This document shows, piece by piece, positions 1 to 36,732 of a DNA stretch of 36,732 nucleotides. The stretch comes from a virus. Position 1 is the stretch's first letter; every line of letters begins with the position of its first letter. The position numbers and the translations under genes were made by a program. The stretch lies in IMG/VR virus record IMGVR_UViG_3300029922_000179; one strand, 5' to 3'. Under the pieces are notes generated by a model, which saw only the letters and a program-made list of their open reading frames with translations, ran no database searches and was not told the origin of the DNA.

Positions 1-67
1 CAACGGCGACGGCTCCGGCTACGGCTACGGCGACGGCCGCTACCCCTACAGTCTGGTGACGCGATGA
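1..67 (+). CDS. 3' fragment of a Gly-X repeat micro-protein (duplicate of the end of 36431..36688 because of the terminal overlap)
   Basis: Reads ...NGDGSGYGYGDGRYPYSLVTR then TGA at 65..67, overlapping the next ATG at 64. Confidence 0.55.
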   Translation, partial: NGDGSGYGYGDGRYPYSLVTR

Positions 68-111
68 AATATCCCAAAGGCTACGGCGACGGCTACGGCG
101 ACGGCTACGGC
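1..111. repeat. Terminal direct overlap; 1..111 is identical to 36622..36732 (signature of a circular or permuted assembly)
   Basis: Base-by-base comparison: both copies read caacggcgacggctccggctacggctacggcgacggccgctacccctacagtctggtgacgcgatgaaatatcccaaaggctacggcgacggctacggcgacggctacggc. Confidence 0.8.
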
Positions 112-231
112 TACGGCTACGGCAACGGCAACGGCTCCGGCAACGGCTACGGCTACGGCAACGGCAACGGCGACGGCTCCGGCTACGGCTACGGCGACGG
201 CCGCTACCCCTACAGTCTGGTGACGCGATGA
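64..231 (+). CDS. Gly-X repeat micro-protein, unit 4 (55 aa; below the ORF-track size cutoff)
   Basis: Hand translation gives MKYPKGYGDGYGDGYGYGYGNGNGSGNGYGYGNGNGDGSGYGYGDGRYPYSLVTR. ATGA overlaps at both ends, and a GGTGA SD-like motif sits 4 nt upstream of the ATG. Confidence 0.6.
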   Translation: MKYPKGYGDGYGDGYGYGYGNGNGSGNGYGYGNGNGDGSGYGYGDGRYPYSLVTR

Positions 232-485
232 AATATCCCAAAGGCTACGGCGACGGCTACGGCGACGGCTACGGCGACGGCTACGGCTACGGCAACGGCA
301 ACGGCTACGGCGACGGCTACGGCTACGGCGACGGCTACGGCTACGGCGACGGCTCCGGCTACGGCTACGGCGACGGCTCCGGCGACGGCTACGGCGACGG
401 CTCCGGCAACGGCTACGGCTACGGCTCCGGCGACGGCTCCGGCTACGGCTACGACCGCTACCCCTACAGTCTGGTGACGCGATGA
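228..485 (+). CDS. Gly-X repeat micro-protein, unit 5 (85 aa)
   Basis: ORF track. MKYPKG head, strict Gly-X core (X=Y/D/N/S), ...GYDRYPYSLVTR tail, ATGA overlaps with both neighbours. Confidence 0.6.
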   Translation: MKYPKGYGDGYGDGYGDGYGYGNGNGYGDGYGYGDGYGYGDGSGYGYGDGSGDGYGDGSGNGYGYGSGDGSGYGYDRYPYSLVTR

Positions 486-733
486 AATATCCCAAAGGCT
501 CCGGCGACGGCAACGGCTACGGCTACGGCAACGGCGACGGCTACGGCTACGGCTCCGGCTACGGCAACGGCGACGGCGACGGCTACGGCGACGGCTCCGG
601 CTCCGGCTACGGCAACGGCTACGGCAACGGCAACGGCAACGGCTACGGCAACGGCAACGGCTACGGCTACGGCAACGGCTACGGCAACGGCTCCGGCAAC
701 GGCCGCTACCCCTACAGTCTGGTGACGCGATGA
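482..733 (+). CDS. Gly-X repeat micro-protein, unit 6 (83 aa)
   Basis: ORF track. Same head, core and tail architecture; Asn-rich core; ATGA overlaps. Confidence 0.6.
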   Translation: MKYPKGSGDGNGYGYGNGDGYGYGSGYGNGDGDGYGDGSGSGYGNGYGNGNGNGYGNGNGYGYGNGYGNGSGNGRYPYSLVTR

Positions 734-927
734 AATATCCCAAAGGCTCCGGCGACGGCAACGGCTACGGCTACGGCAACGGCAACGGCGACGGCTACGG
801 CTACGGCAACGGCAACGGCTACGGCTCCGGCTACGGCAACGGCAACGGCTACGGCAACGGCAACGGCGACGGCTCCGGCTACGGCTACGGCGACGGCCGC
901 TACCCCTACAGTCTGGTGACGCGATGA
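730..927 (+). CDS. Gly-X repeat micro-protein, unit 7 (65 aa)
   Basis: ORF track. Same architecture; ATGA overlaps. Confidence 0.6.
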   Translation: MKYPKGSGDGNGYGYGNGNGDGYGYGNGNGYGSGYGNGNGYGNGNGDGSGYGYGDGRYPYSLVTR

Positions 928-1202
928 AATATCCCAAAGGCTACGGCGACGGCTACGGCGACGGCTACGGCTACGGCTCCGGCTACGGCAACGGCGACGG
1001 CTACGGCTACGGCGACGGCTCCGGCTACGGCTACGGCTACGGCTACGGCGACGGCGACGGCAACGGCGACGGCGACGGCTACGGCTCCGGCGACGGCTAC
1101 GGCGACGGCTCCGGCAACGGCTACGGCTACGGCTCCGGCTCCGGCGACGGCTCCGGCTACGGCTACGACCGCTACCCCTACAGCCTGGTGACGCGACCTT
1201 GA
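924..1202 (+). CDS. Gly-X repeat micro-protein, unit 8, last in the array (92 aa)
   Basis: ORF track. The tail differs only here (agc instead of agt for Ser; ends LVTRP then TGA) and no further ATGA junction follows. Confidence 0.6.
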   Translation: MKYPKGYGDGYGDGYGYGSGYGNGDGYGYGDGSGYGYGYGYGDGDGNGDGDGYGSGDGYGDGSGNGYGYGSGSGDGSGYGYDRYPYSLVTRP

Positions 1203-1227
1203 TTGAAGTGCATTTATTTGCTATATT
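1199..1227 (+). promoter_or_regulatory. Sigma70-like promoter with extended -10 (TTGATT-N17-TGcTATATT) immediately after the array
   Basis: TTGATT at 1199..1204, TG at 1219..1220, TATATT at 1222..1227. It shares the catttnnnTGCTATAwT context with the promoter at 31071..31098. Confidence 0.45.
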
Positions 1228-1258
1228 AAATTAACATTAATTACTATTAAATATAATT

Positions 1259-1552
1259 ATGACAACATATTCATTGAGATGTAGGAACAGCAAATGCCGC
1301 CACCGTCGCGTAGGAAAAACGCATCCATTCGACTATAAGGTGGTGCCTAAGTGCGAAAGCTGTGGAAAACGTGTCGGTTGGCGCATAGAGAAACGAGATT
1401 TTCAGAGAAAGAATCTGTGTTATTGCAGCAGTGTAGTTGGAAGCAACGGAAACTACCCGCACAAAAAAACTCACCCATTTTGCGATCAGCACCCGATGGG
1501 TATTGAAAATCAGATGCGTCGCTCTGGTTATTTTGATGAATGTCCATTTTAA
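1259..1552 (+). CDS. Cys-rich zinc-ribbon-like small protein
   Basis: ORF track. CRNSKC...CESCGKR pairs and a duplicated KTHPF motif. No clear SD. Confidence 0.5.
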   Translation: MTTYSLRCRNSKCRHRRVGKTHPFDYKVVPKCESCGKRVGWRIEKRDFQRKNLCYCSSVVGSNGNYPHKKTHPFCDQHPMGIENQMRRSGYFDECPF

Positions 1553-2763: not shown

Positions 2764-3708
2764 ATGTCCACAACAGAAGATTTCAAGAGCCGCGCTATCG
2801 CAACGACAGAGCCGACTACGTTTCCCCAGATGCTAAAGGCCTTCTTGCCGGAAGTCGAGCGGGCATTGCCCCGTCATCTTAGTGGTGATCGTATGTCGCG
2901 TATCGCATTGACCGCATTTCGTCGCACACCAAAGTTAGCGCAGTGTGATCCGCGATCCGTGTTTGCGGCTGTTATTCAAGCTTCACAATTGGGACTGGAG
3001 CCGGACACTTTGGGCCGGTCTTACCTGATCCCATACGGCACTGAATGTCAGTTTGTTCCAGGCTGGAAAGGTCTGGTTGATCTGATGAATCGAAGCGGCG
3101 CTGGAACCGTCTATACAGGCGTCATTTACAGCGATCAAAAATACACCTATTTAGATGGTTCCAAACGCGAATTGGTGATCCATACAGAAACTGAAATGGA
3201 TGATCCATCCGAAATTACGCATGCATATGCTATTGGATGGGTAAAAGGTTCGGAAATTCCGATTATCGAGTTGTGGCGCATGGCAAAAATTATCAAACAC
3301 TTGAATCGATACAACAAGGTCGGTAAAAGGCATTATGCATTTGAGAACATGGAAATGTATGCGCGCAAAGTGCCATTGCTCCAAGTCCTTAAATACATGC
3401 CGTGTAGCGCCGAGCTAGTCGCCGCTATGAGCCTTTCAGATGCCGCCGAAGTAGGGTCGCAAGGGCTCAACATCAAAGACGCTGCCGATGGCACTTGGAT
3501 GGCTCCAGAAGTCATTGAGGGCCAGCAGGACTCAGTAAGGGCGCCACTCGCTTTTGAAGTCGTATTGAAGAAGATCCGTGGAGCTAAGGACGTAGAAATG
3601 CTCAAGGTGGAGGGTGAGTTGATTGATGATCTTCCTGCTGGTGATCAGGAAGCGGCGAGAGAAGTCTACATCGAATGTCTGGATATCTTAGGGCGCAAGA
3701 AATCGTGA
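2764..3708 (+). CDS. recT: RecT-family single-strand annealing protein
   Basis: VFAAVIQASQLGLEPDTLGRSYLIPYG...FVPGWKGLVDLMNRSG is typical of RecT. AGGAG lies 10 nt upstream of the ATG at 2764; the ORF track starts at TTG 2758. Paired with the YqaJ exonuclease. Confidence 0.7.
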   Translation: MSTTEDFKSRAIATTEPTTFPQMLKAFLPEVERALPRHLSGDRMSRIALTAFRRTPKLAQCDPRSVFAAVIQASQLGLEPDTLGRSYLIPYGTECQFVPGWKGLVDLMNRSGAGTVYTGVIYSDQKYTYLDGSKRELVIHTETEMDDPSEITHAYAIGWVKGSEIPIIELWRMAKIIKHLNRYNKVGKRHYAFENMEMYARKVPLLQVLKYMPCSAELVAAMSLSDAAEVGSQGLNIKDAADGTWMAPEVIEGQQDSVRAPLAFEVVLKKIRGAKDVEMLKVEGELIDDLPAGDQEAAREVYIECLDILGRKKS

Positions 3709-4038: not shown

Positions 4039-4410
4039 GTGGAAGGAGAATTCAAAACAGATCCATTACCTGATAAGTTCGCCCTTCCGAAGAAATGGGG
4101 CGAGTGGGCTTTAACCACCAGGAACGATTGGACTCCAGAGCACGTCAGAGTGTGCGCGAAACGGTTCAAGGAGTATTACACCGACAGAAAGGCGGAGCGT
4201 CATGATTGGGAGCTTGTGTGGCGTCAGTGGGTACGCAACCAACGAACTGAGGCGCTTAGAATATCGGACAAGAACGCCTGGTGGAAAAGCGCTAGCGGTA
4301 TAGATACGAAAGGCCGTGAACTCGGCCTGGATTATGAGGAAGGCGAAAGTTTTCCTTATTTTAAACTCAGGGTATTCAAGGCTGCCGGTGACGGACCTTG
4401 GAATAAATAG
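4039..4410 (+). CDS. Hypothetical protein (123 aa, Trp-rich)
   Basis: GTG start 7 nt after AAGGAG. Confidence 0.55.
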   Translation: MEGEFKTDPLPDKFALPKKWGEWALTTRNDWTPEHVRVCAKRFKEYYTDRKAERHDWELVWRQWVRNQRTEALRISDKNAWWKSASGIDTKGRELGLDYEEGESFPYFKLRVFKAAGDGPWNK

Positions 4411-4419
4411 GATCTCGGC

Positions 4420-4626
4420 ATGAGACATTATCTTTTTATTTTTATGGCCTCAACATTTTTACTCATTTCTGCGATCTTGTTCGTTTGCGTTTTTATCCCG
4501 CTGACACTGACGAGACTCGCGATCCGTTTTATCGAATTGGTTTTTGGCGGCATCGTTATGGTATTTGATTGGATGATCGACTCGATAGTATCGATCTACA
4601 TGCTGCTAGAAGAATTAATATTCTGA
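4420..4626 (+). CDS. Small membrane protein (68 aa, two hydrophobic helices)
   Basis: ORF track. FLLISAILFVCVFIPLTL and GGIVMVFDWMIDSIVSIYML. Confidence 0.5.
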   Translation: MRHYLFIFMASTFLLISAILFVCVFIPLTLTRLAIRFIELVFGGIVMVFDWMIDSIVSIYMLLEELIF

Positions 4627-4639
4627 ATTGGAGGGCATC

Positions 4640-4702
4640 ATGAAAGACAAAGACGTAAGAATAGACGCAACTATTACCCTGAAAGCCGAGGTGAAATCGT
4701 GA
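4640..4702 (+). CDS. 20-aa micro-ORF (MKDKDVRIDATITLKAEVKS)
   Basis: GGAGGG lies 5 nt upstream of the ATG. The stop overlaps the GTG start of the next gene (GTGA). Confidence 0.35.
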   Translation: MKDKDVRIDATITLKAEVKS

Positions 4703-6896: not shown

Positions 6897-7418
6897 TTAC
6901 GAACCCTCTGGCCAGGTGATCGCCTGCACTGCTGCAACGGTAGTCGCAGCACGAATAGCTGCTTTCAGCTTCTCTCGCTGATTGAACGCGGCATTGCCCT
7001 GCGCAAGCATAGTGCCGTACAGATCACCCAGATCAGCAAGTGTGAACGGCACTTGCGTGTTGTCCTCGGCTTGCCAATAAAAGCCTGTCGGCGTTGTACC
7101 CGCGATGTTGTAGCCGGTGAAATTTTTAAGCAGCACACTTTGACTCGACAGTGGACCGTCGTTGTCTGCCTGGTATGCCTGCGTCACACCCGCTGCATTT
7201 TTGAAACTCACAGATACCTGCACAGCCTCGGCATAGGAGGTATCAATGATTGCAATCTGCGCAGCTTGAGCAGCAGCCAATGTCGGCGCTCGTGCGGCAG
7301 CGATTTGCGCGTCAGTCAAAGGCCCTGCCAATCCTTGCGGCCATGACGCTAGTGCGAGCGCGGCGCCACTTTCATCATCATGCAGAAAGCCTGTCGTAGT
7401 ATCTTGCCAGATAGCCAT
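6897..7418 (-). CDS. Tail-fibre-associated protein (assembly/chaperone-like)
   Basis: Follows the fibre gene. AGAGGA SD. Ala/Gln-rich N-terminus. Call is based on position only. Confidence 0.35.
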   Translation of the reverse strand: MAIWQDTTTGFLHDDESGAALALASWPQGLAGPLTDAQIAAARAPTLAAAQAAQIAIIDTSYAEAVQVSVSFKNAAGVTQAYQADNDGPLSSQSVLLKNFTGYNIAGTTPTGFYWQAEDNTQVPFTLADLGDLYGTMLAQGNAAFNQREKLKAAIRAATTVAAVQAITWPEGS

Positions 7419-7430
7419 TTTGTTTCCTCT

Positions 7431-8546
7431 TTATCGAATTTCTATAATTGAAACTGTACCGCCGTAGCTATATACAAATGATGCTCCGGGCAGCGCTATG
7501 GCCGTAACTTGACCATTCGTAGAAGTCGTAATGGTGGACGACCCAATTAATACTCCATTAACCGAAATTGAATACGTCTGCGGCGATGCAACGGCAAATA
7601 TGGAGAGAAAAATAGGTTTTCCTGTCGTGTTGTAATAAGTAGTGCCGTTTACGCGCGACACTGTTTGCACGGTTTGCCCAAATCCAAGCGACTGCATCGC
7701 AGCCAATGCTTGTCCTCCGATGCCCTGAACGGTTGTTGGCGCTGTTGCCCAAGTACCTGCCGTCGTCTCCGTAATGTCGCAGAAACCACCGACCCTAAAT
7801 GAGGAATTGGTCACAGGAGAAGTTGTATATACCACATTATTAGAAGTTGCCCCAGCACTGATTGCCGTTGAGCTAATCAGTGTAGTTTCGTCTAGATTAT
7901 TTCCGCCAGAGAGATTTATTACTCCAAGAACTGGGGTTCCAGCATTGTACAAAACCAAAAAAATTAGTCTGGCTTGAGTCGCGGAAACTGTTCCCAGAGT
8001 GGCACCAGATGGGATAACTAGGCTTAGGGCAGTACCTATCGTCACTGTATTTGGAATGCCGTTCGTTAGAGTCGCAGAGCGAAAATCTAAAGTCGTAGGA
8101 TTGAGGCCGATAGTCAGCGCATTAGATGCCACAGTAGCCGTAACCGGCTGAATTTTTGATGATTGCGACAAGATAGGCGTGGCGATAATAAAACTCACGC
8201 CATCGTAGATTAGCAATGCAGCTAAGGATGTTGTTACAATCCCCGGCCCTTTTGTGCCATCAGGATTGTATTGATTCAATGTTTGGGCGGCCAAACCAGA
8301 AACCGATATAGTGTTACTCCCGGTAGTCCCGGGGGCATTAAACACGACATAAAAGGTCTGCCCTGCGACATAAGAAGTAATTGGTGTGGCAGGCGTCAAA
8401 GTATAGTTCGGCGAAGTACCAGTTGTAGACAATCCTATCTGAGATGTTGCTATGGCTGTAGCAAGGGCGACATTTTGCACCATATGTTGATCCAGAAGAG
8501 CCATTGGCACTGGAGATGTCTGATTTGCCCAAATAATATCGGCCAT
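7431..8546 (-). CDS. Tail fibre / receptor-binding protein
   Basis: 371 aa, Thr/Ser/Gly/Asn-rich with beta-type composition. Sits at the distal end of the structural module. Confidence 0.5.
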   Translation of the reverse strand: MADIIWANQTSPVPMALLDQHMVQNVALATAIATSQIGLSTTGTSPNYTLTPATPITSYVAGQTFYVVFNAPGTTGSNTISVSGLAAQTLNQYNPDGTKGPGIVTTSLAALLIYDGVSFIIATPILSQSSKIQPVTATVASNALTIGLNPTTLDFRSATLTNGIPNTVTIGTALSLVIPSGATLGTVSATQARLIFLVLYNAGTPVLGVINLSGGNNLDETTLISSTAISAGATSNNVVYTTSPVTNSSFRVGGFCDITETTAGTWATAPTTVQGIGGQALAAMQSLGFGQTVQTVSRVNGTTYYNTTGKPIFLSIFAVASPQTYSISVNGVLIGSSTITTSTNGQVTAIALPGASFVYSYGGTVSIIEIR

Positions 8547-13867: not shown

Positions 13868-15235
13868 CTAGCTGGAAGAATTCGAAGAGCCGGAAGACGA
13901 ATACATTTTCGCAAGCGTTTGCATGAAATTCGTCATCGCTTGTTGGCTCTGTTGATCTGCCGTTGTTGCTGCTGTTACGCCAGCCAATTGCGGACCCTGC
14001 GCAACTCCTGCGGCGGATAGGCCTCCGCTCAGTTCATTATTGAGCGCCTGCTGCATCATCTGATTTTGTTGCACGCCGACCTGTGCCAATGCGCTTGCTT
14101 CCATCGATGAATTACTCAATCCAGCATTGGCATAATACTGCTTTATTTGCGCCTGTTGCTGCTGTCCGTATTGCGCGATGGATTGCTGATCCGCAGTGCT
14201 CAACGTGCCGCTCTGATAGTTCGTCAGTAACTGATTGGACACCGCCGATGCGGGAGCTGCGATAGCGTTCAACTGGTTTTGAGCAGTTGCCCCAGTCGTT
14301 GTCGCCGCAGTTTGCGCCTTTTTCGCCATCAGCAAGCTGGCTATTGGCGTAGCTATTCCGGCCACATCCTTGCCAACGCTTAACGCTGTTTTTCCATAGG
14401 CTCCAAGTTGCTTTAGCGCGCTTGTGATTGACGAATTACTGCCTTGGTTGTCTGCTCCAGAACCTGTTCCTGTACCGTAGGGAGTACCATTTTGAGCGGA
14501 ATCCGTGTCGAGAATGTCATTGGACACCGGAGTTGCTGGCGTCGACGGTAACGTAGCCGCTGATGCAGACTGAGCAGCAGCATTGGATACGTCGGCGGGC
14601 GGATTAGTGATTGTTCCAGTAGCGGCATTTGTAGCAGGGCTTGTATTGGGATTGACCGCGTCCGGAGTTACGCTTGCCGGTGCGGATGCAGAGTCTGCGG
14701 AGGATGGTAATGCGGCACTATCAGAAACAACCTGGGAATCTGCTCCTGATAAATCTGAAAGAGCTGAATTTTCAGAGCCTAAGCCAAGTCCGCTAGCTCC
14801 AGAACCGAAAGTAGGGGTAGAGGAATTAATCCCCATGCTGGAAGCGCTTGCCCCTAAATCAGAGCCTCCGACATTTCCATAAATGTCCGCAGAGGAAGAT
14901 CCCAGATTGGATAACCCTGATGCTCCCTGATAAATATTTCCTACATCCTGTAGATCTCCCAATGTTGACCCAGAGGAAGCGGATGGCATTGCCAGCGTAG
15001 CCCCCTCCGCAGCGCTAGCAGCACCAGCACCTGCGTCAGCAGCCGCCGCTCCAGCTCCAACATCGGCTGCGGCAGCACCGCCAGCCACATCGGCTGCGGC
15101 AGCACCGCCAGCCACATCGGCTGCGGCAGCACCGCCAGCCACATCGGCTGCTCCTGCCGCCCCAGCATCCGCAGCCGCTGCCTCTCCAGCAGTTTTAGCG
15201 CCCTCTTCAGCTCCAACAGATCCAGAAACACCCAT
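13868..15235 (-). CDS. Low-complexity Ala/Ser/Gly/Gln-rich virion protein (455 aa)
   Basis: ORF track. AGGAGA SD. Contains the AADVAGGAA x3 repeat. Confidence 0.5.
   Translation of the reverse strand: MGVSGSVGAEEGAKTAGEAAAADAGAAGAADVAGGAAAADVAGGAAAADVAGGAAAADVGAGAAAADAGAGAASAAEGATLAMPSASSGSTLGDLQDVGNIYQGASGLSNLGSSSADIYGNVGGSDLGASASSMGINSSTPTFGSGASGLGLGSENSALSDLSGADSQVVSDSAALPSSADSASAPASVTPDAVNPNTSPATNAATGTITNPPADVSNAAAQSASAATLPSTPATPVSNDILDTDSAQNGTPYGTGTGSGADNQGSNSSITSALKQLGAYGKTALSVGKDVAGIATPIASLLMAKKAQTAATTTGATAQNQLNAIAAPASAVSNQLLTNYQSGTLSTADQQSIAQYGQQQQAQIKQYYANAGLSNSSMEASALAQVGVQQNQMMQQALNNELSGGLSAAGVAQGPQLAGVTAATTADQQSQQAMTNFMQTLAKMYSSSGSSNSSS
15061..15151. repeat. Perfect 27-nt tandem repeat, about 3.4 copies (catcggctgcggcagcaccgccagcca)
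   Basis: Read directly. Encodes AADVAGGAA repeats in the 13868..15235 product. Confidence 0.85.
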
Positions 15236-15244
15236 GATATTCTC

Positions 15245-15700
15245 CTATAGCAATTTAGAAAACGCCGTTTCCAATACTTCGTAGCCATCGTGCGTCAAAA
15301 TCTTTGACCAATCATTTTCTGGCTTGATGCGCCAAACGATCTGCACGGCGCCAAGCTCTTTTAACCGTTTCTCTGATTCTCTTTTCAGCATTAATCCGGC
15401 GCGCGTCTTCCTAAATTCTTTAGAGACAAACAAAACATCGTTGACGCCCACCAAACTTGTCATGTAATGCATATGATATAGAACACAAAAAACGGAATAC
15501 CCGATGATCTTCCCGTCTTCACGACATGCTATAGCCAGAAGTCTCCCATTAGCCTCCATAGACTCATACCGACTACGATCTGGGGCCAGTGGAATAGCTT
15601 CCTTATTATGCGCTATTTCATTCCAATGCTCGACAAGCAGAGCCTGCATGTCATCCCACATTTGAGCAACGCTCTCTACCGCAACGGTCAAGCTCTTCAT
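15245..15700 (-). CDS. GNAT-family N-acetyltransferase
   Basis: GKIIGYSVF...VNDVLFVSKEFRKTRAGLMLKRESEKRLKELGA resembles the GNAT beta4-alpha3 acetyl-CoA region. Confidence 0.55.
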   Translation of the reverse strand: MKSLTVAVESVAQMWDDMQALLVEHWNEIAHNKEAIPLAPDRSRYESMEANGRLLAIACREDGKIIGYSVFCVLYHMHYMTSLVGVNDVLFVSKEFRKTRAGLMLKRESEKRLKELGAVQIVWRIKPENDWSKILTHDGYEVLETAFSKLL

Positions 15701-31314: not shown

Positions 31315-31515
31315 ATGCAAACAGTCAAAGTAAACGGCGTAGGTGGCGAATGGACTAAGACTACGGTTACAGTTCAAGGCAAAGCATGCCGCCGCATTAT
31401 GGCTCCTGACGGCAGCAAAGACTACGATTACGAAGGTGTTCGCAGCGTCGTCCGTCTTCGCCACACTAGCAAACTGGCAATTGCAATCGAAGCAGAAATC
31501 GTCAAGCTGTCGTAA
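31315..31515 (+). CDS. Hypothetical small protein (66 aa)
   Basis: AGGAGA lies 6 nt upstream of the ATG at 31315. The ORF-track TTG start at 31171 is unlikely. Confidence 0.5.
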   Translation: MQTVKVNGVGGEWTKTTVTVQGKACRRIMAPDGSKDYDYEGVRSVVRLRHTSKLAIAIEAEIVKLS

Positions 31516-31558
31516 CCAACCGGGGCTTCGGCCCAAAACCACAACAGGAGCTAAACAA

Positions 31559-32116
31559 ATGAAAACCACATTAAAAAAGATCAGAGAGTGTGCGGCATCC
31601 CCCGCCAGCTTACAAAAGTTATTGCGTTCGTTAGGTAAAACGAAAGCAGATGCCGAACCCGTTTCCATCATTCAGATTCTGGACAGCAACGGATTAGATG
31701 ATGCGCTGTGGTGTCTGCGTGCAGTGGAAGGTCATGACCGCGAGATTCGACTTTTTGCTGTGTGGTGCGCTCGCCAAGTCGAACATTTGATGATGGATGA
31801 GAGAAGCAAGAACGCATTGAACGTCGCCGAACGTTTCGCCAATGGCGAGGCATCGAAAGTCGAATTGGCCGCTGCCAAGGCCGCTGCCTTGGCAGCTGCC
31901 TGGGCCGCTGCCTGGGCCGCTGCCTGGGCCACTGCCAGGGCCGCTGCCTTGGACGCTGCCTGGGCCACTGCCAGGGCCACTACCAAGGCCGCTGCCTTGG
32001 ACGCTGCCTTGGACGCTGCCTGGGACGCTGCCTGGGCCACTGCCAGGGCCGCTCAAGAAAAAGAACTGCGCCGAGTCTGCGCAAAGATCGAAGCAGATTT
32101 GGCAGTAGGCGCATAG
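31559..32116 (+). CDS. Helical protein with a C-terminal Ala-rich tetrapeptide repeat, (A/D)(A/T)(A/T)(W/L/R/K) x15
   Basis: AGGAG SD before the ATG at 31559. The N-terminal part (ALWCLRAV...RLFAVWCARQVEHL...ALNVAERFANGEAS) resembles Imm5-like putative immunity proteins, from memory only and unverified. Confidence 0.55.
   Translation: MKTTLKKIRECAASPASLQKLLRSLGKTKADAEPVSIIQILDSNGLDDALWCLRAVEGHDREIRLFAVWCARQVEHLMMDERSKNALNVAERFANGEASKVELAAAKAAALAAAWAAAWAAAWATARAAALDAAWATARATTKAAALDAALDAAWDAAWATARAAQEKELRRVCAKIEADLAVGA
31868..32047 (+). repeat. 12-nt coding tandem repeat (GCC GCT GCC TGG and variants), 15 units
   Basis: Units read AAAK AAAL AAAW AAAW AAAW ATAR AAAL DAAW ATAR ATTK AAAL DAAL DAAW DAAW ATAR. 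Confidence 0.85.
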
Positions 32117-33670: not shown

Positions 33671-33949
33671 ATGAACACAAAAATCTTAGCAGTTTCCGGC
33701 GGTTTCTATTTCTTTGGAACAGAAATTACTGCGCAGGCCGATGGCTATATCGCCCTCAAAAACGCCGCGATGTTTGGTGGTTTTTCTGGTGGAAAAGGGT
33801 TGCCTGGGGTGGCGCGCGGCGATAAGTCGTCGACAGTCATACTGGACCAATTCGTTCCAGAAGAAGAGCTGCTGTTTCCAGTAACGGCCGTGTTTGCAAT
33901 TCTCCCTTCCATCGATCTCTATACCTTCAAAGGTACTACTTTACGATAA
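33671..33949 (+). CDS. Hypothetical protein (92 aa), first gene of the MoxR/vWA/array block
   Basis: AAGGAG lies 6 nt upstream of the ATG at 33671. Contains a GGFSGGKGLPGVARGD motif. Confidence 0.55.
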   Translation: MNTKILAVSGGFYFFGTEITAQADGYIALKNAAMFGGFSGGKGLPGVARGDKSSTVILDQFVPEEELLFPVTAVFAILPSIDLYTFKGTTLR

Positions 33950-34016: not shown

Positions 34017-34805
34017 ATGAGAAAATTATTCTCGCCACACATACCCGTCCTTTTAATTGGCCCTCCCGGCATAGGAAAAACGGAACGCGTACAGTCGTAT
34101 TTCGACCACGCCGAAGTCATGCTGACATCGACGCTTGTCGAGGAGGACATCGGCGGACTTCCCTATCGCGAGGGGGAATACGATTACCGCACCATTCCTG
34201 CTATGTTTCGTCGGCTAGAAGAAGCCAACACAAATGGTAAAACAACTGTTCTTTTTCTTGATGAGCTGGATAAGGCAAGGCGCTCTGTAGCTGACACGTT
34301 GCTAACCCTTATTGCCTCGCGTAAAGTTGGATCTGCTTCATTACCGAAAAATACGTGCATTGTTGCCGCTGGCAATCCCCCAGAGTTCGGCGGCGGTGAT
34401 GGAATTAGCGAGGCGATGCTATCACGATTTGCAGTCGTTGACTGCGAGCCGGATATTCTGGAATGGTGCGAATGGGCCAAGAAAAATTTCTCTCCCGAGA
34501 TAGCCAGCGGTGTGATCAATGCGATAAAGACGGGAGAAATGCCGATCTTCGATCGCACAGGAGAAGGTCTCGATAAACGTATTTCTTCTCCCAGAACTAT
34601 TGCGATGGCTCTTCGCGCCGTAGGAATGTTTTCGCCGGGAAGCGACGAACTTTCGCGATTGGTTCGGGGACTTCTTACGCCAGCAGTGGCAAGCCAGCTT
34701 CTCTATCTTGTGCGTAATCAACACAATGATGTACTTGATGTCGCTACTGGCTCTGCAAAAAGAAGCTCGTTAAAGAAGTCGGTTATACAACCGGTGAGAC
34801 TCTGA
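34017..34805 (+). CDS. MoxR-like AAA+ ATPase
   Basis: Walker A LLIGPPGIGKTE, Walker B VLFLDELDKA, sensor-1-like IVAAGNPPE. AGAGGAG SD. Confidence 0.8.
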   Translation: MRKLFSPHIPVLLIGPPGIGKTERVQSYFDHAEVMLTSTLVEEDIGGLPYREGEYDYRTIPAMFRRLEEANTNGKTTVLFLDELDKARRSVADTLLTLIASRKVGSASLPKNTCIVAAGNPPEFGGGDGISEAMLSRFAVVDCEPDILEWCEWAKKNFSPEIASGVINAIKTGEMPIFDRTGEGLDKRISSPRTIAMALRAVGMFSPGSDELSRLVRGLLTPAVASQLLYLVRNQHNDVLDVATGSAKRSSLKKSVIQPVRL

Positions 34806-34807
34806 TC

Positions 34808-35854
34808 ATGCTTACCGCTGCCCCTATAATTCGTAAGCCCCTGTCCTTAATTGGGGCGCCTGGCTTGACCGACTTTGTCAAGATATACATCGCTTCAGAA
34901 CTTAACAAGCGAGAATATCGTACGACCCTGCGTCATGAGCAAGCACATGTTTGGGCTGGCCATAACCGTAGACGGCCAAAAGATGCTGTCGACAAGTTGT
35001 GGCGCATCGCCTGCGAAATGGAAATTGCAAAGACGATCTACGACGATATTGATATTGAAAACATCAATGCTCCTCGTTCTAGATTATCTGGTGGGTATCT
35101 CCCTGATACGTTGGCGAATATGCCCGTAGGCATTATCTTAGCAGAAGACATCTACGAATGGCTTCTGCAACAATCGGAAAACGAGATACCAGACGTCGAA
35201 TGCACATGCTCCTGTACATGCAATTCTGACCGAGATGAGGAGTCAGATCAACCCGATGCGTCTACGATGGTAGAATCCGCGCGCGCGGCTCTGGACGATA
35301 TCGACAAGGTCGGGGATGCGCAAGCCGCAGTAACTAGCAACTATAATCACTTGAAGAACCGCACCCCTTCTCTCACTGACGAAGTAGACGCGGCTTTACG
35401 GGTGAGAGTAGAAAGAGAGCGCACACATAGACGGCCTTCTCGTAGGGACTCTCCAAATGTAATCCTTCCTGGCGCCGTATCGATTCCTAGACCGCCTCTG
35501 GTAGAGATATTCGTCGATAGAAGTGGCTCGTTCTCTTCTGACAAAACCGCCCAAGCTGAAATTCGGCTAAAAAAAATACTGGCAAAATACGGCGCTAGTA
35601 TAGCCGCTGATGTTTGGTTCTTTGGGAATGGTAGAATATCGGCCAGCGATATAAGAGGTGGAGGGGATACGCCATACCATCTAATCGCCCAACATCTCGC
35701 CGTCTCTTTGCCGAAGATAGCCATCGTAATTACCGACGATGATCCGGTAGAAAACTCAATTAAGCCGGTTTTAGGGCCAGTTATAATTTGCGTTCCCGTG
35801 GGATGCACATCTACAAATTTAGCCCGTCGCCTCGGCGGAAAAGACGTTGCATGA
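34808..35854 (+). CDS. Zincin-like metallopeptidase domain + vWA (MIDAS) domain protein (DUF2201-like architecture)
   Basis: HExxH in LRHEQAHVWAGH. MIDAS DxSxS in EIFVDRSGSFSS. Later AIVITDDD strand. Starts 2 nt after the MoxR stop, and its own stop overlaps the first array ATG (ATGA). Confidence 0.7.
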   Translation: MLTAAPIIRKPLSLIGAPGLTDFVKIYIASELNKREYRTTLRHEQAHVWAGHNRRRPKDAVDKLWRIACEMEIAKTIYDDIDIENINAPRSRLSGGYLPDTLANMPVGIILAEDIYEWLLQQSENEIPDVECTCSCTCNSDRDEESDQPDASTMVESARAALDDIDKVGDAQAAVTSNYNHLKNRTPSLTDEVDAALRVRVERERTHRRPSRRDSPNVILPGAVSIPRPPLVEIFVDRSGSFSSDKTAQAEIRLKKILAKYGASIAADVWFFGNGRISASDIRGGGDTPYHLIAQHLAVSLPKIAIVITDDDPVENSIKPVLGPVIICVPVGCTSTNLARRLGGKDVA

Positions 35855-36138
35855 AATATCCCAAAGGCTACGGCGACGGCGACGGCTACGGCGACGGCGA
35901 CGGCTACGGCTACGGCGACGGCTACGGCTACGGCGACGGCGACGGCGACGGCTACGGCGACGGCGACGGCTACGGCAACGGCAACGGCAACGGCGACGGC
36001 GACGGCTACGGCAACGGCAACGGCTACGGCGACGGCTCCGGCAACGGCTACGGCTACGGCTCCGGCGACGGCTACGGCTACGGCTACGGCTACGGCTACG
36101 GCGACGGCCGCTACCCCTACAGTCTGGTGACGCGATGA
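35851..36138 (+). CDS. Gly-X repeat micro-protein, unit 1 (95 aa)
   Basis: The ATG at 35851 overlaps the vWA gene stop (ATGA). Product is MKYPKG-(G-X)n-GDGRYPYSLVTR. The ORF-track start at 35788 lies inside the vWA gene and is unlikely. Confidence 0.6.
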   Translation: MKYPKGYGDGDGYGDGDGYGYGDGYGYGDGDGDGYGDGDGYGNGNGNGDGDGYGNGNGYGDGSGNGYGYGSGDGYGYGYGYGYGDGRYPYSLVTR

Positions 36139-36434
36139 AATATCCCAAAGGCTACGGCGACGGCTACGGCTACGGCTCCGGCAACGGCTACGGCTACGGC
36201 AACGGCTACGGCGACGGCTACGGCTACGGCGACGGCGACGGCGACGGCTACGGCGACGGCGACGGCTACGGCAACGGCAACGGCAACGGCGACGGCGACG
36301 GCTACGGCAACGGCAACGGCTACGGCGACGGCTCCGGCAACGGCTACGGCTACGGCTCCGGCGACGGCTACGGCTACGGCTCCGGCTACGGCTACGGCTA
36401 CGACCGCTACCCCTACAGTCTGGTGACGCGATGA
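36135..36434 (+). CDS. Gly-X repeat micro-protein, unit 2 (99 aa)
   Basis: ATG at 36135 inside the conserved junction. The ORF-track 35847 ORF merely reads through unit 1 in the LRRR frame. Confidence 0.6.
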   Translation: MKYPKGYGDGYGYGSGNGYGYGNGYGDGYGYGDGDGDGYGDGDGYGNGNGNGDGDGYGNGNGYGDGSGNGYGYGSGDGYGYGSGYGYGYDRYPYSLVTR

Positions 36435-36688
36435 AATATCCCAAAGGCTACGGCGACGGCAACGGCTACGGCGACGGCTACGGCGACGGCTACGGCGACG
36501 GCTACGGCTACGGCAACGGCAACGGCTACGGCGACGGCTACGGCTACGGCGACGGCTACGGCTACGGCGACGGCTCCGGCTACGGCTACGGCTCCGGCAA
36601 CGGCTACGGCTACGGCAACGGCAACGGCGACGGCTCCGGCTACGGCTACGGCGACGGCCGCTACCCCTACAGTCTGGTGACGCGATGA
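36431..36688 (+). CDS. Gly-X repeat micro-protein, unit 3 (85 aa)
   Basis: ORF track. Same architecture; ATGA overlaps. Confidence 0.6.
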   Translation: MKYPKGYGDGNGYGDGYGDGYGDGYGYGNGNGYGDGYGYGDGYGYGDGSGYGYGSGNGYGYGNGNGDGSGYGYGDGRYPYSLVTR

Positions 36689-36732
36689 AATATCCCAAAG
36701 GCTACGGCGACGGCTACGGCGACGGCTACGGC
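36685..36732 (+). CDS. 5' fragment of unit 4 (identical to 64..111)
   Basis: MKYPKGYGDGYGDGYG..., truncated by the window end. Confidence 0.55.
   Translation, partial: MKYPKGYGDGYGDGYG

Follow-up and report, generated by a model that had tools for sequence, protein, structure and literature searches.

A coding hexanucleotide repeat in a phage genome that is probably reshuffled from its own copies

Introduction

Coding minisatellites under concerted evolution are known in several settings, among them the GAGAGS blocks of silk fibroin, the repeats of fish antifreeze glycoproteins and those of bacterial contingency loci. We have studied a coding repeat with a unit of six bases in a stretch of viral DNA of 36,732 nucleotides (IMG/VR record IMGVR_UViG_3300029922_000179), the whole length of which is referred to here as the window. 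The repeat forms an array of at least nine small genes in tandem, each encoding a peptide of the form MKYPKG-(Gly-X)n-RYPYSLVTR, where X is Tyr, Asp, Asn or Ser. Upstream lies a gene for a protein related to the DUF6948 family, with a predicted Sm-like fold. The window is phage DNA, with genes for an SU10-like portal and adaptor, a major head protein, a YqaJ exonuclease, RecT and a DUF1064 protein.

Gly-rich repeats are found in other protein families. Those of the Sm, LSm and Hfq group can carry Gly-rich tails, as in the Arg-Gly dipeptide tails of SmD1 and SmD3 and the GGFGGQ repeats of Acinetobacter Hfq. Low-complexity domains of the FUS type, with the motif [G/S]Y[G/S], form condensates.

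An original prediction, made by eye from the letters of the window, had drawn attention to the codons of the array, where every difference between repeats seemed to change the amino acid. Three readings were offered: a very recent amplification of a six-base lattice with selection on X, a directed process, or a constraint on the nucleic acid itself. We have followed this up with an exact codon count, comparison of units within the window, comparison of closely related phages and a survey of arrays in other viral contigs. The array proves to be remarkably pure in its codons, its units differ mostly by the gain, loss and exchange of whole hexamers, and it probably serves as the template for its own variation.

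Results

Codons were counted exactly over the eight complete and two truncated units of the window. The 569 core codons are made up of GGC (286), TAC (122), GAC (76), AAC (53) and TCC (32), and no other codon is present. Thus GGT, GGA, GGG, TAT, GAT, AAT, the remaining Ser codons, CAC, ACC and AGC all score zero in these 569 codons. The original prediction of one codon per amino acid, all of them NNC and free of silent variants, agrees with the exact count, as does the suspected absence of CAC, ACC and AGC from the cores. It had placed the pattern at positions 64-1202, where it is indeed found, but this is not its full extent, as the array also covers 35851-36732 and 1-67.

The genes of the window outside the array use the same codons less exclusively, GGC supplying 33% of Gly, TAC 51% of Tyr, GAC 41% of Asp, AAC 39% of Asn and TCC 21% of Ser. 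If codons were taken to be independent then the uniformity of the array would be astronomically unlikely, but this is not a valid test, since the copies in an array are not independent. A tRNA scan of the window found none, and so a phage-encoded tRNA does not explain the choice of codons.

The array spans 35851-36732 together with 1-1202, and is open at both ends of the contig. Eight units are complete, encoding 55-99 amino acids, and two more are truncated by the ends of the window. All features of the array lie on the + strand, as follows.

35851..36138, +, array unit 1, 95 amino acids, MKYPKG-(GX)n-RYPYSLVTR
36135..36434, +, array unit 2, 99 amino acids, with an exact 29-hexamer run in common with unit 1
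36431..36688, +, array unit 3, 85 amino acids
36685..36732, +, start of a further unit, truncated by the window end
1..67, +, end of a truncated unit (…NGDGSGYGYGDGRYPYSLVTR*), cut by the window start
64..231, +, array unit, 55 amino acids, equal to the unit at 36431 minus hexamers, with 0 mismatches
228..485, +, array unit, 85 amino acids, with 21 hexamers in common with the unit at 36431
482..733, +, array unit, 83 amino acids
730..927, +, array unit, 65 amino acids
924..1202, +, last array unit, 92 amino acids, with the sole flank substitution (AGC at 1182-1184, synonymous) and 1 extra codon before the stop
1199..1260, +, AT-rich spacer with two matches to sigma-70-like promoters (2 sites against 0.4 expected)

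Each unit begins with the head ATG AAA TAT CCC AAA (MKYPK), continues with a core in which GGC alternates with TAC, GAC, AAC or TCC, and closes with the tail CGC TAC CCC TAC AGT CTG GTG ACG CGA TGA (RYPYSLVTR*). Neighboring units overlap by a stop/start ATGA, with a GGTGA a few bases upstream of each start. Tandem Repeats Finder returned a period of 6 with the consensus GGCTAC, in 183 copies at 79-1167 and 132 copies at 35866-36658, and the hexamer lattice is in frame with the ATG starts. Joining the end of the window to its start creates a junction that is out of frame. The contig therefore broke within the array, and nine units are a minimum. Probably the genome is circular or has redundant termini, and contains some number of extra array units. 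The spacer at 1199..1260 is a boundary, where the array operon ends and the genes for a Cys-rich protein, the YqaJ exonuclease and RecT begin.

Several features indicate that the array would be translated in the Gly-X frame, as judged from the ATG starts, the ATGA overlaps, the GGTGA upstream, the conservation of flank residues and the in-frame fusions to protein domains described below. Two other readings of the array were considered and rejected. In a CRISPR-like interpretation there are identical 42-base 'repeats' and variable 'spacers', but the 'repeats' are the stop/start junctions of open reading frames and the 'spacers' are the coding lattice. Coding on the reverse strand would give open reading frames rich in Arg and Ser or in Ala and Val; their translation is not conserved, being RS/AV in the window and HS/AI in the related contig L002.

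Comparison of the units within the window reveals that they are mosaics. The nine heads and nine tails are identical apart from one synonymous change of AGT to AGC (1182-1184) and a read-through CCT codon in the last unit. With one substitution in all the unique flanks, there can have been hardly any time for ordinary point mutation. In spite of this the cores differ considerably in length and order. The units beginning at 35851 and 36135 have an exact run of 29 hexamers in common, and those at 36431 and 228 a run of 21, while in shuffled controls the longest common run was no more than 12 hexamers. Pairwise alignments of units contain 0-3 mismatches but 4-15 hexamer gaps. The differences between units are mostly insertions and deletions of whole hexamers, and exchanges of blocks, among four pre-existing types of hexamer. 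The original prediction had regarded the units as paralogs that should have accumulated silent changes by ordinary divergence. With flanks so nearly identical the units are not diverged paralogs, and that premise falls: the unique flanks differ at one base overall, and what separates the units is mostly indels and rearrangement of hexamers.

The same behavior can be observed between closely related phages. The contigs L069 and L100 are 99.4-99.6% identical in their flanks, and their arrays differ by an indel of 162 bases, i.e., 27 hexamers. A more extensive comparison is provided by cultured Rheinheimera 'Barba' phages, of which 115 complete genomes in GenBank contain the pair of DUF6948 and Gly-X genes, annotated as genes. 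In these phages gp018 is the DUF6948 partner, and gp017 is a Gly-X peptide of 69 amino acids, with all GGC and NAC codons. The flanks have a GC content of 36.5%, and the array 63%. We fetched 15 isolates, which carry eight alleles of gp017. The length of this gene is 210, 216, 240 or 252 bases, and all the neighboring genes are of constant length.

Thirteen of the Barba isolates have no mismatches in 1,191 flank bases, yet have six alleles of gp017 between them, including both the 210- and 216-base forms. These six alleles differ by single-hexamer insertions at three sites, one swap of TAC and AAC that affects only the first base of X, and one transposition of Tyr and Asn. No silent change was found among the six alleles of the 13 flank-identical isolates. 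The original prediction had asked whether variation at the population level is confined to the first and second base of the X codon, and in these related phages the array differences are indeed hexamer indels and TAC/AAC swaps, and never silent. A scan of metagenomes with the 3′ junction of the array gave a single chance match in a bacterial chromosome, and so no population data for the window's own phage.

Expression of gp017 and gp018 of barba18A peaks at the first two time points (t1-t2), in the early/replication group (PMC9305737 Table S2). The gene is not discussed in the two Barba phage papers.

Array segments have also appeared in unrelated surroundings. Positions 111-310 of the contig L133 are 100% identical over about 200 bases to 361-560 of the window, spanning a unit junction, and the flanks are otherwise unrelated. 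The first unit of L133 has a different head, MEAINLTLDG, and stands directly after a gene of the DUF6948 type. From the sequences, this suggests that segments of array may be exchanged between phages.

We also examined more distant relatives. The 348-amino acid protein encoded immediately upstream of the array was used as query, and found four viral contigs, three of which have MKYP…VTR genes. L001 ends within its array. L002 is a prophage of Luteibacter sp. Sphag1AF, an isolate genome, and its array combines GGC with TAT, GAT, AAT, ACT and TTT only. The array of L003 is of the NAC type, and includes CAC, ACC, AGC and TGC. L004 has a homolog of the 348-amino acid protein but no array. L003 has two separate arrays, at 2898-3415 and 7047-7866, with a DUF6948-like gene at 4391-4666 between them. 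In L008 the first unit is built on GGC and units 2 and 3 on GGA, with the boundary between the blocks inside unit 2. From one locus to another the residues Y, P and G of the flanks never change, but their codons do (TAC or TAT; CCA, CCC, CCG or CCT; GGA or GGC), and this pattern reads as the signature of a translated sequence under constraint at the level of protein. Among these orthologous arrays uniformity is found within each array but does not extend between them, where the codons differ synonymously, as in L002 (NAT) and L008 (GGA).

For a broader view, viral contigs were scanned for (GGN NAY)12. At least 120 stretches were obtained, from which unrelated poly-GD and poly-GN proteins were removed, and the survey counts given here and below are from the matches listed. 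Minor synonymous codons were absent from 76 of 124 cores, and made up no more than 5% in 100 of the 124. The lattices were GGC-NNC (105), GGC-NNT (8), GGA-NNC (7), GGG-NNC (5), GGT-NNC (4), GGA-NNT (2) and GGT-NNT (2). Within an array the codons for different amino acids agree in their third base, TAT occurring with GAT, AAT and TCT, and TAC with GAC, AAC and TCC or AGC. About 80% of the arrays use GGC-NAC, irrespective of a flank GC content ranging from 0.32 to 0.69.

The variation is strongly concentrated at one base of the hexamer. The fraction of minor bases is.006 at G1,.003 at G2 and.031 at G3 of the Gly codon, and.49 at X1,.086 at X2 and.042 at X3 of the X codon. In 7,826 interior codons there were 51 types and 136 tokens of synonymous variants, compared with 382 types and 2,081 tokens of non-synonymous ones. 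In most of the examined arrays that have silent Gly variants, these are clustered in blocks or repeated as part of duplicated blocks of higher order. His (CAC) is less frequent than Asp or Asn by a factor of 14-20, though it too is one step from TAC. Ser is encoded by TCN only in 29 arrays and by AGY only in 4, and the use of either route to the same amino acid indicates convergence at the level of protein. Taken together, these arrays show that no fixed nucleic acid sequence is required and that arrays are repeatedly re-founded or homogenized. On every such occasion the palette of Tyr, Asp and Asn, with or without Ser, is re-established, and this suggests selection on the peptide.

In-frame fusions of the Gly-X run to unrelated domains, DUF7666 among them, occur in other phages. 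Carriers of such fusions are L029 (4963-5622); L015, L053, L101, L104 and L130; L044 and L066; L024, L069 and L100; and L109 and L123. The fusion partners comprise the DUF6948 domain itself, a conserved C-terminal domain of about 160 amino acids, DUF7666 and several unmatched domains. The nearest annotated relative of the fused domain of about 160 amino acids is a 'ribonuclease inhibitor' of Riemerella phages, at 27-29% identity. A PDB sequence search and a PHROG scan with the domains fused to the repeat found nothing. Many of the related viral contigs end within their arrays.

Searches with the peptides themselves returned little. A word-indexed protein search with one unit gave eight weak matches only, the low-complexity core being filtered, and scans of the peptides against Pfam, PHROG and NCBIfam gave only spurious low-complexity matches (TrAA12, serine-rich protein). 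Nothing relevant was found in the literature searched on GY-repeat motifs, DUF6948 and glycine-tyrosine prophage repeats.

The array of the window is preceded by three genes on the same strand.

33671..33949, +, DUF6948-like protein with a predicted Sm/LSm-like fold, 92 amino acids, aligned by hhalign with the family of array partners
34017..34805, +, AAA_5 (MoxR/dynein-type) ATPase (PF07728, E 1.3e-12; phrog_1297, E 2.3e-31)
34808..35854, +, 348-amino acid protein that carries HExxH and weakly matches a VWA-like family (DUF2201) (phrog_1314, E 1.8e-17)

The first of these belongs to the most consistent companion of the arrays. When all array neighbors were clustered the dominant family was a protein of 90-120 amino acids, which we term the partner. 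Of 123 loci, 79 have it directly upstream in the same orientation, separated by a median of 51 bases, and 21 of the 34 partnerless loci have fewer than 600 upstream bases available. The subfamily of the partner co-varies with the motifs at the two ends of the peptides, and in L029 partner and Gly-X repeat are naturally fused. Two extra genes separate partner and array in the window and in L001 and, by gene order, also in L002 and L003. PF22253 (DUF6948) is matched by 18 of 29 partner sequences, with E values up to 8e-30. The Pfam family has no described function, and no paper naming DUF6948 was found in the literature searched.

The partner of the window gave no direct match to the PF22253 model, and is linked to the family by profile-profile alignment and by fold. 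Its alignment by hhalign with the partner family of the other arrays has a probability of 95.6% and E = 1.3e-8. An AlphaFold2 model has a mean confidence (pLDDT) of 96.6. The top PDB match to this model in Foldseek is 3by7, followed by archaeal and eukaryotic Sm/LSm proteins; these matches are weak, with E from 3e-4 to 1e-2 and TM scores of 0.5-0.66. BFVD matches of the model include DUF6948 proteins. A PDB sequence search with the partner profiles found no relative.

The 348-amino acid protein contains HEQAH and DRSGS motifs in its translation, and its match to PF09967 (E 0.013) is below the Pfam cut-off. The stop codon of its gene overlaps the start of the first array unit in an ATGA at 35851-35854. 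The family phrog_1314 is labeled 'HNH endonuclease', but its members in the window (34808-35854) and in L080 (9685-10815) carry HExxH and a VWA-like DxSxS and adjoin an AAA_5 ATPase, so that the label looks to be wrong on the basis of these motifs. A search of GenBank phages with this protein gave no match, nor did a near-identity DNA search of GenBank phages with the genes neighboring the array in the window.

Recurrent neighbors of the arrays are genes for an exonuclease, an Erf-like annealing protein, DnaB, single-strand binding protein (SSB), DNA polymerase, NinG/Rap and a methyltransferase. A scan of the window with Rfam at the gathering threshold gave 0 matches, and the PADLOC defense models gave nothing above noise. 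Directly after the array, behind the promoter-like sites, the window encodes a Cys-rich protein of 97 amino acids (1259-1552, +; phrog_17384), which weakly matches part of DrmA in PADLOC (E 5e-4). Look-up of its exact sequence found no record.

The window contains two other tandem repeats. A second coding minisatellite, at 31868-32047 within the open reading frame 31343-32116 (+; phrog_18326), has 15 copies of a 12-base unit GCC GCT GCC NNG, encoding the peptides AAAW, AAAL, ATAR and DAAW. The original prediction held that this locus behaves in the same way as the array. The rule of one codon per amino acid fails here, Ala having three codons (GCC 24, GCT 11 and GCA 1, the last being the sole silent variant noted) and Thr two (ACT 4, ACC 1), but departures from the unit are mostly non-synonymous as had been stated. 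The fourth codon varies in its first two bases only (TGG, TTG, AGG, AAG). At 15060-15166, in the minus-strand structural region (open reading frames 13868-15235 and 14941-15288), there is a perfect 27-base tandem repeat of 3.4 copies, or 54 bases twice.

Discussion

We consider it probable that the array is a coding hexanucleotide minisatellite that reshuffles itself by slippage and recombination, with selection holding Gly together with a palette of Tyr, Asp, Asn and Ser. A founder hexamer GGC-TAC would have been amplified into Gly-X cores, and GAC, AAC and TCC would have arisen from TAC by a small number of point mutations at X1 or X2. Replication slippage, unequal crossing-over and out-of-register gene conversion would then copy, delete and reshuffle hexamers and blocks of hexamers, within units, between units and between phages. 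When such repeats pair out of alignment the mismatches would fall at X positions only, and events templated by the array itself could spread only differences that already exist. Selection would keep Gly at every second position and favor a mixed palette of Tyr, Asp, Asn and Ser, and silent variants, having no advantage, would be lost or remain rare. Because the array is its own template, and because its standing differences change the amino acid, no silent changes would spread. The molecular route, by slippage or conversion, and the selection on X are what we infer from these patterns. The cause is an ordinary kind of process, the concerted evolution of a coding minisatellite, in unusually pure form.

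Recent amplification of a six-base lattice with selection on X was the first reading of the original prediction, and it is well supported. The flanks of the units are nearly identical, blocks of 29 hexamers are held in common, and relatives differ by whole-hexamer indels; in addition the same palette of Tyr, Asp, Asn and Ser is found on differing synonymous backgrounds.

Some points weigh against this explanation, or limit how far it can be taken. A founder effect with drift leaves unaccounted for the use of GGC-NAC in about 80% of the arrays at any flank GC content. Some pressure on the third codon position exists, and translational selection, biased conversion and horizontal spread of arrays are all possible. 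The TAC/AAC swaps between flank-identical isolates could be point mutations at a hotspot at X1, and not conversions. The assembler may in part have determined how many units the window has and in what order, both contig ends lying in the array. The peptides are predicted from their genes, and their interaction with the DUF6948 protein is putative. Finally, an AlphaFold2 model of one unit has a pLDDT of 34 and no secondary structure, and is uninformative.

Could the nucleic acid itself be the functional element? In this explanation (GGC NAC)n would serve, as RNA or DNA, to bind the neighboring Sm-like protein at many sites, or would provide a 'linker' of homology for recombination between phages, and the uniform codons would follow from that constraint. 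The prevalence of GGC-NAC whatever the flank GC content is in its favor, and the partner has a predicted Sm-like fold, typical of proteins that bind RNA. The arrays adjoin genes for RecT/Erf, exonuclease and SSB, and the 200 bases that L133 has in common with the window stand amid unrelated DNA. The RNA of the array is also unusually unstructured, with a calculated folding energy over window positions 210-500 (+) of -84 compared with -113.5 kcal/mol (z = +6.6) relative to shuffles that preserve dinucleotides. However, weak structure is expected of any repeat that lacks self-complementary words, and this lattice has almost none. Whole arrays are built on GGA, GGG, GGT and NAT lattices, and Ser is TCC or AGC depending on the array. 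Between arrays it is the Gly-X reading and the flank amino acids that are conserved, the flanks having changed silently, and in-frame fusions join the repeat to protein domains. Rfam gave no match. We therefore regard a function of the nucleic acid as improbable. In its absolute form the constraint proposed in the original prediction is contradicted by the GGA, GGG, GGT and NAT arrays and by the two codings of Ser, but a preference for GGC-NAC remains.

The peptides might alternatively be precursors of a ribosomally synthesized natural product or bacteriocin, with the head as leader, the HExxH/VWA protein and the ATPase as processing functions, and the diversity of X as a library of products. 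Such systems typically have precursor genes in several tandem copies, conserved at their ends and variable in their cores, and the putative metallopeptidase and ATPase genes are directly upstream and translationally coupled. Aromatic-Gly-Asn/Asp triplets resemble known cyclophane cross-link motifs. Against this, no radical-SAM, YcaO, lanthionine or export match was obtained in the open reading frames scanned, which did not include every small one. Most of the approximately 120 arrays are without the ATPase/peptidase pair and have the DUF6948 gene only, and L004 has a homolog of the peptidase without an array. A head of six residues is too short for a usual leader, and the genes are early and adjoin replication genes. 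A role as precursors thus seems quite improbable.

An artifact of sequencing or assembly is very improbable as the source of the lattice and the mosaic. Both ends of the window and many viral contigs stop within arrays, and the units exceed typical k-mers and have identical junctions, as would suit collapsed or chimeric assembly of low-complexity sequence. Yet the same architecture is present in more than 120 independent viral contigs, in the Luteibacter sp. Sphag1AF isolate and in cultured Rheinheimera phages (115 complete genomes), in which it has been annotated as a gene and is transcribed, and misjoining is unable to alter the codon tally.

Mutagenesis of the type carried out by a diversity-generating retroelement (DGR), the only concrete candidate for the directed process of the original prediction, in which an error-prone reverse transcriptase would randomize the adenines of a (GGC AAC)n template to give GGC NNC with fixed third bases, is hardly credible: X codons that are all NNC, an invariant Gly and variation concentrated at the first base of X do bear a superficial likeness to mutagenesis of AAC codons, but no reverse transcriptase was matched in Pfam or PHROG among the ten largest and ten further open reading frames around the array (those unscanned being all of 223 amino acids or fewer) or among the recurrent neighbors of about 120 arrays, the second A of the X codon is kept in about 90-91% of hexamers with only 4 of the 16 NNC codons present in the window, the A of GGA-based arrays is unchanged so that differences are not confined to adenines, and array lengths vary, the units differing mainly by whole-hexamer indels and common blocks that are not a product of retrohoming.

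If the array is a self-reshuffling coding minisatellite, we may ask what its peptides do. They are acidic and Tyr-rich, predicted to be disordered, and expressed early. Very tentatively, they might act with the Sm-like DUF6948 protein in the phase of replication and recombination, for example as multivalent tails or scaffolds. A more far-reaching proposal is that DUF6948 and (Gly-X)n constitute a widespread early phage system, in which the reshuffling repeat is itself an adaptation, a generator of diversity and length that needs no retroelement. It would serve to tune or escape a host factor, or to build a compartment for replication or recombination, and the GGC-NAC lattice would be a bridge by which arrays move between unrelated phages. 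We think this unlikely on present evidence.

A repeat that templates itself would provide a clean natural example of how many protein variants can arise fast with never a silent change, and isolates with identical flanks already differ. The array also brings to light a conserved pair of phage genes, in which a DUF6948 gene, its product predicted to have an Sm-like fold, precedes the Gly-X genes. The pair is carried by well over 100 viral contigs and by the cultured Rheinheimera phages, its products are labeled only as hypothetical proteins in GenBank, and no description of it was found in the literature searched. Arrays of this kind break short-read assemblies and are easily set aside as noise from low-complexity sequence. 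For the function of the peptides an immediate experimental system is available in the cultured Barba phage, for which the transcriptome has been profiled, and its host.

How does the array compare with described systems? It resembles DGR variable regions in its NNC codons with variable first and fixed third bases, and in the absence of stop codons. It differs from them in that no reverse transcriptase or template repeat was found, the changes are not specific to adenine, the length varies and the palette is restricted. With FUS-type domains it has in common Tyr 'stickers' spaced by Gly or small polar residues, and a prediction of disorder. Unlike those domains the predicted products here have a strict dipeptide period, are acidic, and would be very short free-standing phage peptides.

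The likeness to Sm, LSm and Hfq proteins lies in the association of a protein of Sm-like fold with a Gly-X or Gly-aromatic repeat, the two being fused in L029. Here, however, the repeat is usually in one or more separate genes, X is Tyr, Asp or Asn and not Arg, and the similarity of the partner is a predicted one at the level of fold only, with TM scores of 0.58-0.66. Among named families the partner is closest to DUF6948 (PF22253), matched by 18 of the 29 partner proteins, with that of the window aligning by profile-profile comparison and fold.

The closest parallel remains with the coding minisatellites of silk fibroin, antifreeze glycoproteins and contingency loci. As in those, a short in-frame unit has been amplified head to tail, there is uniformity within an array and difference between arrays, close relatives differ by whole units, and a few variant units are interspersed. 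The phage array departs from them in having a unit of two codons with variation at almost one base, in being split into small genes with a conserved head and tail, in being carried by phages, and in being paired with DUF6948.

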